From NCBI GenBank assembly GCA_040754495.1, contig JBFMCO010000026.1, forward strand, positions 1 through 18,939: 18,939 bases of DNA, written 5' to 3'. Positions within the stretch are counted from its first letter, which is position 1. The number at the start of each line of letters is the position of its first letter. This DNA comes from Candidatus Micrarchaeota archaeon. GTDB taxonomy: Archaea > Micrarchaeota > Micrarchaeia > Anstonellales > Bilamarchaeaceae. Below are positions 1,373 through 9,325 of this stretch, one piece after another. A program made the position numbers and the translations under genes. The notes beneath the pieces are model-generated. The model was not told the origin of the DNA. It ran no database searches and saw nothing but the letters and a program-made list of their open reading frames with translations.

Positions 1373-1549
1373 GCCCTCGTAGTCTAGCCTGGATAGGACG
1401 CAACCCTCCGGCGCGCTTTTTGAAAAAAAGCGCGGCAAAAACTATCTGTTTGCAAACCCTCGCAGGGCTTGCAGACAACCAGTTTTGGGCCGCCTTTTTC
1501 CAAAAGGCGGAGAGAGGTTGATGGGCGGGTTCAAATCCCGTCGAGGGCG
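1373..1549 (+). tRNA. tRNA-Arg(CCG), intron-containing (exons 1373-1411 and 1515-1549; CCA not encoded)
   Basis: Acceptor GCCCTCG/CGAGGGC, discriminator G; D-stem GTCT/GGAC with loop AGCCTGGATA; anticodon stem CAACC/GGTTG; loop CT-CCG-G|A; T-arm GCGGG-TTCAAAT-CCCGT. Spliced length is 74 nt. Confidence 0.95.
1412..1514 (+). other. 103-nt tRNA intron at canonical position 37/38 with a strict bulge-helix-bulge motif
   Basis: Central helix CTCC(1406-1409)/GGAG(1509-1512); 3-nt bulges GG|C (1410-1412) and AG|A (1513-1515); outer helix GC(1413-1414)/GC(1507-1508). Removal restores a 7-nt anticodon loop. Confidence 0.92.
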
Positions 1550-7132: not shown

Positions 7133-9325
7133 ATGGCAAGGAAGGAATTCGTAGTCGAGGAAGCCCAGAAGCTGATGGACAACATAGAGAATGTCAGGAA
7201 TGTCGCAATCATCGCGCACGTCGACCACGGGAAGACGACGCTGACGGACAGCCTCGTGGCGAGGGCCGGCCTAATCAGCAAGGAGCTTGCCGGCCAGCAG
7301 CGCGTCATGGACTTCGACGAGCAGGAAGCCGCCAGGGGAATCACCATCAAGTCGGCCAACATCTCGCTGGGCTTCAGCTATGACGGCAAGGATTATCTCG
7401 TCAACCTCATCGACACGCCGGGCCACGTGGATTTCGGATTCCACGTGGTGCGCGCGATGCGCGCGGTCGACGGCGTGTGCCTGGTCGTGGACGCGGTCGA
7501 GGGCGTGATGCCCCAGACCGAGACCAACCTGAGGCAGGCGCTCAAGGAGAGGGCCCAGCCGGTGCTTTTCATCAACAAGATAGACAGGCTGATAAACGAG
7601 CTGAAGTTCGACGCGGCCCAGATGCAGCAGAGGTTCGTCAAGATAATCACGCAGGTGAACAAGATTATAGACACCAACGCCCCGGAGGACAAGAAGGAGG
7701 CGTGGCTCATCAAGGTGGACCGGGGCAACGTTGCCTTCGGCACGGCGTTCAACAAGTGGGCGGTTTCCTATTCGTCCATGAAGAAGTTCAACATAGGCTT
7801 CAAGGACATCTACGACAAGTGCGCTAACGGCGAGCACGCATGGCTGGTCGAGCGCAGCCCGCTCGACGAGGTGCTCCTGGAGATGATAATCAAGCACCTC
7901 CCCAACCCGAAGACCGCCCAGCCCTACCGCATCCCGGTCCTGTGGAGGAACGGGGACCTGACGACCGAGGCCGGGAAGACGATGCTCGCGTGCGACAACA
8001 AGGCAAAGCCCATAGGGGTCTGCTTCGGCGTCGCTTATGACGAGCACGCAGGAGAGGTCGCGGTCGTGAGGCTGTTCTCCGGCAGCGTCGAGAAGGGGAC
8101 GACGCTGTACGTCCACTCGAAGAAGGATTACGCCAGGGTGCAGCAGGTCGGGATATACATGGGGCCGGACAGGGTGGCGGCTAATCGTGTCATCGCCGGG
8201 AACATCGGCGCTTTCGTCGGGCTCAAGGACGTCTATGTCGGCGAGACCATATGCGGGGAGCCGATAGAGCCTTTCGAGCAGATAAAGCACTATTCCGAGC
8301 CGGTCATCACCAAGTCGCTCGAAGTGAAGGAGCAGAAGGACCTGCCGAAGCTGATTGAAGCGCTGAGGTCCATCTCCAAGGAGGACCCGACCATCAAGAT
8401 TTCCCTCAACCAGGATACGGGCGAGCACCTTGTTAGCGGCAACGGCGAGCTGCACCTGGAAATCATAGAATACAAGATACAGGTCGAGAGGAAGATACCG
8501 ATTATAACGTCCCCGCCGATAGTCGTGTACAGGGAGGCTTTGCTCGGCAGGTCCCCGGTGGTCGAGGGCAAGTCGCCGAACAAGCACAACAGGCTCAAAG
8601 TGACCGTCGAGCCCCTCGAGCCCGAGATAATCAAGGCCATTGATGAGGGGGCGGTCAAGGAGGGGAGACCCAAGGGCAGGGAGGTATGGGAGAAGCTTGT
8701 CGAGCTCGGCATGGACCGGGAGGATGCGAGGAGCATCTACGACATCCACAACTCCAGCGTCTTCATAAACGACACCAAAGGCATCCAGAACCTGAACGAA
8801 TGCGAGGAGCTTCTCGTGCAGGGATTCGAGGAAGCGCTCGACCAGGGCCCTATGGCCAAGGAGAAGATGAGCGGGGTGAAGGTCAGGCTTGTCGATGCCA
8901 CCCTCCACGAGGATAACATACACCGCGGCCCGGCGCAGATGATTCCTGCGATAAAGAGGCCCATATACGCGGCCATGCTGATTGCTGGGGTGACGCTCCT
9001 TGAGCCGAAGCAGAAGGTGCTCATAAACACCCTGCAGGAGTACGCCGGCAACGTCATCACCCTCACGAACGGAAGGAGGGGGACGCTCGTCGGGATGGAG
9101 CAGGAGGGCGAGAACGCCGCAATCACCACGGTGCTCCCGGTGGCTGAGATGTTCGGATTCGCGAACGAGCTGCGCGGGGCCACGCAGGGCAGGGCCATCT
9201 GGTACCAGGAGTATGCCGGCTACAGCAGCATGCCCAAGGAGCTTGTCTCCAAGGTCGTGAAGCAGATACGCGAGCGCAAAGGCGAGAAGCCCGAGCCGCC
9301 CACGCCGGAATTCTTCATGGAATAG
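7133..9325 (+). CDS. fusA: Archaeal translation elongation factor 2 (aEF-2), 730 aa
   Basis: Motifs AHVDHGKTT, RGITIKSA, DTPGHVDF, NKID and GELHLEI; diphthamide loop LHEDNIHRGPAQ (His597, codon 8921-8923); FGFANELRGATQGRA. Confidence 0.98.
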   Translation: MARKEFVVEEAQKLMDNIENVRNVAIIAHVDHGKTTLTDSLVARAGLISKELAGQQRVMDFDEQEAARGITIKSANISLGFSYDGKDYLVNLIDTPGHVDFGFHVVRAMRAVDGVCLVVDAVEGVMPQTETNLRQALKERAQPVLFINKIDRLINELKFDAAQMQQRFVKIITQVNKIIDTNAPEDKKEAWLIKVDRGNVAFGTAFNKWAVSYSSMKKFNIGFKDIYDKCANGEHAWLVERSPLDEVLLEMIIKHLPNPKTAQPYRIPVLWRNGDLTTEAGKTMLACDNKAKPIGVCFGVAYDEHAGEVAVVRLFSGSVEKGTTLYVHSKKDYARVQQVGIYMGPDRVAANRVIAGNIGAFVGLKDVYVGETICGEPIEPFEQIKHYSEPVITKSLEVKEQKDLPKLIEALRSISKEDPTIKISLNQDTGEHLVSGNGELHLEIIEYKIQVERKIPIITSPPIVVYREALLGRSPVVEGKSPNKHNRLKVTVEPLEPEIIKAIDEGAVKEGRPKGREVWEKLVELGMDREDARSIYDIHNSSVFINDTKGIQNLNECEELLVQGFEEALDQGPMAKEKMSGVKVRLVDATLHEDNIHRGPAQMIPAIKRPIYAAMLIAGVTLLEPKQKVLINTLQEYAGNVITLTNGRRGTLVGMEQEGENAAITTVLPVAEMFGFANELRGATQGRAIWYQEYAGYSSMPKELVSKVVKQIRERKGEKPEPPTPEFFME

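Follow-up and report, generated by a model that had tools for sequence, protein, structure and literature searches.

How archaeal tRNA genes gain their introns is a question posed in concrete form by a tRNA-Arg(CCG) gene of a Micrarchaeota genome, whose 103-nt intron is framed by inverted hairpins: the copied unit can be delimited with single-base precision, and filled and empty sites are found both in tRNA genes and outside them. Is such an intron a mobile element that survives by being spliced out, a switch that controls maturation of the tRNA, or an old structural part of the precursor? We place a probability of about 0.7 on its being a spliceable BHB intron derived from a non-autonomous mobile palindrome and copied from an intron of the tRNA-Glu type.

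The tRNA-Arg(CCG) gene and its intron

The window analysed here is the entire contig C26 (18,939 nt) of a Bilamarchaeaceae-like Micrarchaeota MAG, denoted G000, that comprises 1.63 Mb in 72 contigs with 59.5% G+C and is rated 80% complete with 1.5% contamination. EF-2 (7133-9325) shares 94% identity with its counterpart in a 'Candidatus Bilamarchaeum' MAG, and the best 80 loci all belong to Micrarchaeota or DPANN MAGs, in agreement with the DPANN affiliation that the earlier note had assumed.

The tRNA gene is not visible to routine searches: ARAGORN with introns off, its default, reports no tRNA in the window, Rfam at its gathering thresholds has no match there, and even at E <= 0.1 neither the tRNA locus nor the intron is matched by Rfam. 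ARAGORN -i recovers a span of exactly 1373-1549 with a 103-nt intron, which it places 2 nt too far 5', so that the anticodon is misread as CCA. Together with a BHB search, the intron is located at 1412-1514, at position 37/38, and all stems of the cloverleaf are paired (acceptor 1373-1379/1542-1548, D 1382-1385/1396-1399, anticodon 1401-1405/1516-1520, T 1525-1529/1537-1541). A strict 3-4-3 hBHBh' motif, with an h of 5 bp, an H of CTCC/GGAG, bulges GG|C and AG|A and an h' of 2 bp, places the predicted cuts at 1411|1412 and 1514|1515; since the splice sites are fixed by this motif, the anticodon loop reads CUCCGGA, i.e. Arg(CCG). The CCA (Trp) reading was rejected: its splice sites are incompatible with a BHB, and in sister species the Arg genes have CCG followed by a purine at 37, either G or A at the equivalent place. 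No second copy of the Arg(CCG) exons is present in the G000 assembly (80% complete), this gene being the only tRNA-Arg(CCG) found. The features of the locus are the following:

1373-1411, + strand: 5' exon of tRNA-Arg(CCG), positions 1-37, with the anticodon CCG at 1408-1410 (ARAGORN -i, cloverleaf, BHB splice site)
1401-1405/1516-1520, + strand: outer helix of the BHB
1406-1409, + strand: 5' strand of the central 4-bp helix of the BHB (anticodon-loop positions 32-35), pairing with 1509-1512
1410-1412, + strand: 5' three-nt bulge, GG|C, containing the predicted 5' splice site
1412-1514, + strand: 103-nt intron with a BHB, at 37/38, of the kind seen in tRNA-Glu genes (ARAGORN -i, BHB, identity comparison)
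1412-1443, + strand: left module in inverted orientation, a perfect 10-bp hairpin (1412-1434) followed by the tail GCAAAAACT
1413-1414/1507-1508, + strand: h' of the BHB
1447-1477, + strand: central 13-bp core hairpin, common to the Glu and Gly introns of G000 and to the Glu introns of other species
1481-1510, + strand: right module, the tail AGTTTTGGG followed by a perfect 9-bp hairpin (1490-1510)
1509-1512, + strand: 3' strand of the central BHB helix, made of the right hairpin's final 2 nt and 2 linker nt
1513-1515, + strand: 3' three-nt bulge, AG|A, containing the predicted 3' splice site
1515-1549, + strand: 3' exon of tRNA-Arg(CCG), with discriminator G

This anatomy bears out the description given in the earlier note of a 103-nt intron with hairpin arms: the left arm and the reverse complement of the right arm are identical at 25 of 32 positions, each arm forms a perfect hairpin, and the central hairpin has 13 pairs, one of them G-U, and a single A/C mismatch. 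Equally sound was its statement that C/D boxes are lacking and that the intron is too short for a homing endonuclease: the 103 nt contain no RTGATGA and no CTGA of the kind that define C/D box sRNAs, and no homing-endonuclease ORF, the longest stop-free stretch being 34 codons. The T5 runs of both intron hairpins could be weak archaeal terminators.

A dispersed palindromic module

The earlier note had granted that arms found nowhere else would speak against a mobile element. A BLAST search of G000 with the intron uncovers instead a dispersed family: full-length relatives of the intron lie on C66 (88% over 100 nt), C51 and C58, there are many matches of 93-100% to the 30-nt right arm, and this arm has 18 copies at <= 6 mismatches. 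The underlying unit is a module of about 30 nt comprising a GTTTTG(R) tail, N5, TTTT, a 3-nt loop (CCY or ACT), AAAA and N5'; in reverse complement, the hairpin comes first and YCAAAAC follows. The arms of the intron are two inverted copies of this module around the core hairpin, and the module is also found singly. Perfect N5-T4-loop-A4-N5' hairpins number 35 in G000, as against none in the reversed genome. The GTTTTG...TTTT...AAAA matches in G000, selected on the tail and the T/A runs alone with the stem left free, have a fully Watson-Crick 5-bp stem in 24 of 24 cases, with seven different stem sequences among them: pairing is thus kept while the sequence changes. An earlier covariation count was discarded as circular, the hairpins in it having been picked for perfect stems.

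About 23 of the 33 tailed hairpins (~70%) lie in tRNA genes, which make up about 0.3% of G000. By our heuristic tRNA catalogue, some 25 of about 31 detected genes are interrupted and much longer than 90 nt, with spans of up to ~300 nt, and several have two introns. Module copies in these genes occur in either orientation, both at 37/38 and in D-loop introns, and either singly or as inverted pairs around variable cores. In addition, modules of the left type (hairpin plus CCAAAAAAC tail) begin directly after the discriminator of two tRNA genes, at C22:18773-18810 and at C14 ~44050-44090, where their T6 run would act as a terminator.

With its terminal inverted repeats and 18-35 dispersed copies the element resembles a MITE, and as a short palindrome with a conserved terminal tag, often in inverted doublets, the module resembles the REP/REPIN elements. 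A CRISPR-like reading, suggested by the size of 29-30 nt and the GTTTTG start, was rejected, as the copies never form direct-repeat arrays.

The tail-plus-run pattern is present in 36 of 39 genomes of the genus, mostly in 4-48 copies against 0-5 for a backwards control. Within the family, the enrichment extends to two or three further genera (g24, g28 and perhaps g23); the pattern is at background level in the remaining order. Strict-pattern copy numbers within the genus range from 0 to 48; the genomes with no strict match (G004, G016 and G019) nevertheless each show, by BLAST, single diverged copies of a GAAAC type, and are hence module-poor rather than module-free.

Probable exchange of introns between tRNA genes

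With the Arg intron, the intron of tRNA-Glu(TTC) (C66) shares 86% identity and that of tRNA-Gly(CCC) (C51) 80%, whereas the exons reach only 62-63% in these comparisons; over the three genes, intron identity is 80-86% and exon identity 62-68%. tRNA-Glu(CTC) on C58 carries the same intron type. Across species, too, the best matches of the Arg intron are found in tRNA-Glu genes (G021, G017 and G022). The comparison of orthologous Arg(CCG) genes advised by the earlier note shows that the introns of sister species are alike neither in length nor in content. Where the exons have 0-2 mismatches, the introns measure 34 nt (G004), 57 nt (G005), 58 nt (G022), 75 nt (G006), 76 nt (G021) and 88 nt (G007); the G018 gene has an intron of ~127 nt and an extra one in the D-loop, and the G013 gene, the 3' exon of which differs at 5 positions, has one of 117 nt. 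A further candidate, G016:C34 (L102), is a non-orthologous Arg(GCG) gene and was left out of the comparison. All these sister-species introns begin with a similar hairpin, all lack the core hairpin seen here, and most lack the right module. The G022 gene has only the left hairpin and has kept the upstream metallophosphoesterase gene; gene order at the Arg locus is conserved only in that genome, so that the term orthologue rests mostly on exon identity. The linker that comes after the right hairpin fits the loop of each host gene: GGAG with CUCC in Arg, GAAG with CUUU in Glu.

Most likely, an intron of the Glu type has replaced an older, shorter Arg intron in the G000 lineage, the direction of copying being that suggested by these comparisons. 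As all Arg(CCG) genes already possess an intron at 37/38 that starts with a hairpin, recombination is as possible a route as transposition for this particular copy.

Copies outside tRNA genes and empty sites

The spacer between rpl23 and rpl2 of G000 holds a copy of the module (C19:11761-11795), in which hairpin and tail are set directly on the rpl23 stop codon. It occupies this spacer in G000 and G081 and is decayed in G006, and at least nine relatives in the genus have a spacer of 10-12 nt instead. A second copy lies in frame within pyrF (OMP decarboxylase; Pfam E = 9e-24; C14:17190-17219), where 21 extra nucleotides give the loop peptide RLLGKGAPKRG; among the 29 genus genomes compared this insert is found in G000 and G018 only, the other 27 being without it. 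G018 is not the closest relative of G000 by either pyrF or rpl identity; two separate hits on the site, or repeated losses of the insert, would each account for the distribution. Further copies in G000 are located just past a stop codon on C28 (3' UTR), in a spacer on C29, and immediately downstream of the RNase P RNA gene on C61. The flanks of the rpl23-rpl2 and pyrF copies show no consistent target-site duplication; other small inserts, where RNA genes end at the 3' side, are bordered by direct repeats of 12, 16 and 23 nt.

The proposal of the earlier note that a mobile palindrome hides in tRNA genes is thus well supported by the dispersed family, by the presence or absence of the spacer copy and by the copy in pyrF, and of the three outcomes that the note listed as fatal to it none was obtained; what has to be amended is that its 'terminal repeats' are two copies of a smaller unit.

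A contrary explanation is that the modules are old structural parts of tRNA introns, used as a splice-site clamp or in the binding of a helper and homogenised by gene conversion only, with no moving element. The concentration of ~70% of the copies in tRNA genes would agree with this, as would the invariable position of the right module of 37/38 introns next to the 3' splice site, the left-hairpin intron at 37/38 in every Arg(CCG) gene examined, and the covariation of the stem as in a functional RNA. However, copies are also found where splicing is not expected (in frame in pyrF, in the rpl23-rpl2 spacer with its empty sites, and in the 3' UTR on C28), both orientations occur in transcripts, the strict pattern varies from 0 to 48 copies within a single genus, and the 34-nt Arg intron of G004 does without the tail-plus-hairpin design. 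On balance we regard a purely structural origin as improbable.

Splicing machinery and a proposed mechanism

The tRNA-splicing endonuclease EndA of G000 is a protein of 391 aa that matches PDB 4fz2 over its full length (E = 1e-132) and is of the epsilon2 type; RtcB is also encoded. PDB 4fz2 is the three-unit epsilon2 EndA of ARMAN-2, which in vitro cleaves BHB motifs of both the strict and the relaxed form (PMC3239211; PMC3488258). Strict BHB motifs at the expected sites are likewise present for the module-bearing introns on C66, C58 and C46. A permissive BHB scan over all tRNA genes yielded 52 strict motifs against ~26 in shuffles and is too noisy to serve as a statistic; hence, only matches at the 37/38 site were used. 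From the motif and the enzymes we infer that the 103-nt intron is spliced, with the cuts as predicted above.

In the reading that we prefer, namely a mobile palindrome turned spliceable intron, the intron is a protein-spliced BHB intron made of two inverted repeats of ~30 nt around a conserved core hairpin. The module behaves as a non-autonomous mobile palindrome, comparable to REP/REPIN or to the Rickettsia RPE, and would move at the level of DNA; transposition is one way in which the intron could have been copied between non-homologous tRNA genes, gene conversion using the hairpins that they share another. At the splice site, the end of the right hairpin (two base pairs' worth) and two linker bases would pair with loop positions 32-35, giving a 4-bp helix between 3-nt bulges; the three-unit epsilon2 endonuclease would cut at this BHB and RtcB would join the exons.

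A more general proposition, to which we assign somewhat less than an even chance, is that a REP-like hairpin module has served as the vehicle that creates and remodels protein-spliced introns of archaeal tRNA genes. Nearly any DNA site would be open to its insertion, whether in spacers, at gene ends or in coding loops; its stem would supply h' and part of the BHB, and it would survive best in tRNA genes because the broad-specificity epsilon2 endonuclease excises it there. If this is correct, intron gain in archaeal tRNA genes would for the first time have a defined agent.

Folding of the intron and the question of a switch

The intron is strongly structured, with a fold energy of -47.4 kcal/mol compared with -28.8 +/- 3.4 for shuffles (z = -5.6), and the earlier note had seen in it two competing folds: a long rod that exposes the BHB and a three-hairpin form that hides it. 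If so, the intron could act as a conformational switch that regulates tRNA-Arg(CCG) maturation, for example by temperature. Partition-function folding does not return a single dominant rod for the full pre-tRNA at 37 C: two fold families coexist in silico, with the terminal hairpins at P ~0.5-0.7 and the rod at ~0.27. At 25 C the values are ~0.64-0.89 and ~0.11, and at 60 C the rod is dominant (P ~0.63), so that the populations of both families and the temperature dependence of the rod are as a switch would have them.

The other half of the claim is only approximately right, in that the strict BHB is presented as such by neither fold. The rod of minimum free energy (MFE) pairs 1414 with 1509, competing with the central helix of the BHB for 1509, and hence must fray by 1-3 bp. 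In the free ensemble the strict BHB helix has a P of ~0.004; forcing the BHB costs ~3.4 kcal/mol, or ~6 if h' is included. The BHB helix can form alongside a rod whose base is frayed, or alongside a right hairpin that has lost 2 bp, and its central helix coexists with the shortened three-hairpin form (body+BHB fold, 25 C), which speaks against a switch. Furthermore, the Arg(CCG) genes of G005 and G021, with identical exons, lack the right arm and the central hairpin: the two-state design is thus not conserved among sister species. The recurrence of the architecture in Glu, Gly and other tRNAs also speaks against a control specific to Arg. Two alternative folds are the automatic result of any two inverted palindromes, and the rod/three-hairpin alternative is a by-product of this kind and no regulator; the gating of maturation suggested by the earlier note is not supported, and we consider a switch very unlikely.

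Still less credible is the view that the hairpins serve as T-rich stem-loops for termination or attenuation, and that their location in or close to tRNA genes is fortuitous. In its favour, two tail-less hairpins (C39, C45) are situated between convergent genes like bidirectional terminators, and two tRNA genes (C22, C14) have a left-type module immediately after their 3' end. Against it, a terminator would do harm within a tRNA gene that is essential and present once, neither the conserved GTTTTG tail nor the CCY loop is a feature of terminators, and one copy is translated within pyrF.

Search for a mobilising enzyme

No enzyme that would mobilise the module was found. G000 (80% complete) has neither a Y1/HUH transposase nor a reverse transcriptase. 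Y1 transposases are encoded in 9 of 40 genomes of the genus; hairpins resembling the module are absent from the ends of four Y1 transposase loci of relatives, and the arrangement of a RAYT flanked by REPs was not found. G000 has four TnpB genes, one of which, on C66, is near a tRNA-Glu gene with another gene between the two. An autonomous element with module ends was found neither at the four Y1 loci nor beside the TnpB gene of C66. As a separate observation, an IS200-type Y1 transposase gene of G018 (C1:64688-65047; L104), the ends of which are without the module, terminates ~135 nt upstream of the two-intron tRNA-Arg(CCG) gene of that genome.

Relationship to known systems

The long archaeal tRNA-Trp intron is ~100 nt in length, is located at 37/38 and contains a C/D box guide RNA. 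The Arg intron has a comparable length and the same position; unlike the former, it has no C/D boxes and no Rfam match.

The Rickettsia palindromic elements (RPE; Ogata et al., 2000), which PMC2635572 mentions, are reportedly tolerated in frame in protein-coding genes and also occur in RNA genes and spacers. The module shares these settings, having a copy in frame in a protein gene and others in RNA genes and in spacers; the RPE differ from it in being ~100-150 bp long, bacterial, unrelated in sequence and not spliced out.

With the REP/REPIN elements, which are mobilised by the Y1 enzyme RAYT (PMC3733652; PMC3686654), the module has in common a palindrome of 20-40 nt, a short tag at the end, a non-autonomous and lineage-specific character and tens of copies; the inverted doublets of REPINs, too, can adopt two forms, a pair of hairpins or a single long one (PMC3733652; PMC3686654). 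The differences are that the module is mostly found inside genes, as part of tRNA introns, whereas REPs lie outside genes, and that its tag is GTTTTG and not GTAG or CGTC; there is no RAYT-like gene in G000, and no link to the Y1 transposases of its relatives.

The nearest published parallel comes from the Thermoproteales, for which transposition of tRNA introns has been inferred without a mechanism (Fujishima et al., 2010, Mol Biol Evol 27:2233; presented in PMC4090602 and PMC3239211). According to these accounts, near-identical BHB introns are present there, as here, in tRNA genes that differ in identity and position, pointing to copying after speciation. The present case differs in that the hosts belong to another phylum (Micrarchaeota, DPANN), intron lengths run from ~50 to 130 nt and beyond, and a palindromic module is defined; this module also occurs singly outside tRNA genes, in spacers and a protein gene, copies of a kind on which the summaries of the Thermoproteales work are silent.

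ARMAN-2, 'Ca. Micrarchaeum acidiphilum', is of the same phylum and has the same three-unit EndA and many interrupted tRNA genes, including ones with introns at non-canonical positions (PMC3239211; PDB 4fz2). There, the substrate introns were of 13 and 25 nt, and no repeat family shared by introns is mentioned (PMC3239211). We found no description in the literature of such a repeat in the tRNA introns of Micrarchaeota.

The module occurs in dozens of related genomes at very different copy numbers. With a defined unit, empty sites and this spread, intron gain becomes amenable to comparative genomics and to simple biochemistry with the 4fz2 enzyme, for which purified protein and crystals have been obtained. 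There is also a practical consequence for annotation, as standard tRNA finders miss or misread genes that bear the module: ARAGORN with introns on calls the Arg gene Trp, and the Glu genes 'Stop' or 'Pyl'. The tRNA inventories of DPANN are hence distorted.

Other repeats at RNA genes

A second dispersed repeat of G000 consists of clusters of heptamer-spaced GGAAAC(C/N) / GTTTCC units, often in inverted pairs, at 22 sites (e.g. C23:10201-10260, C31:48561-48627 and C51:59143-59188); some of these clusters are within tRNA genes or adjoin them.

The archaeal RNase P RNA is encoded on the minus strand at C61:336-643 (Rfam RF00373, 71 bits, E = 1e-18); as its score is lower than the gathering score of 84, default annotation would miss the gene.

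Gene-end duplications accompany several of the RNA genes. Downstream of the tRNA-Arg gene, a 12-nt direct repeat of its 3' end (CGTCGAGGGCGT), at 1539-1550 and 1604-1615, brackets a 53-nt insert with a small hairpin, and a T5 terminator comes after the second CGTCGAGGGCGT copy. A similar duplication of ~23 nt adjoins tRNA-Gly on C23:10360-10440, and one of 16 nt surrounds an insert that contains a module, downstream of the RNase P RNA gene (C61:205-350).
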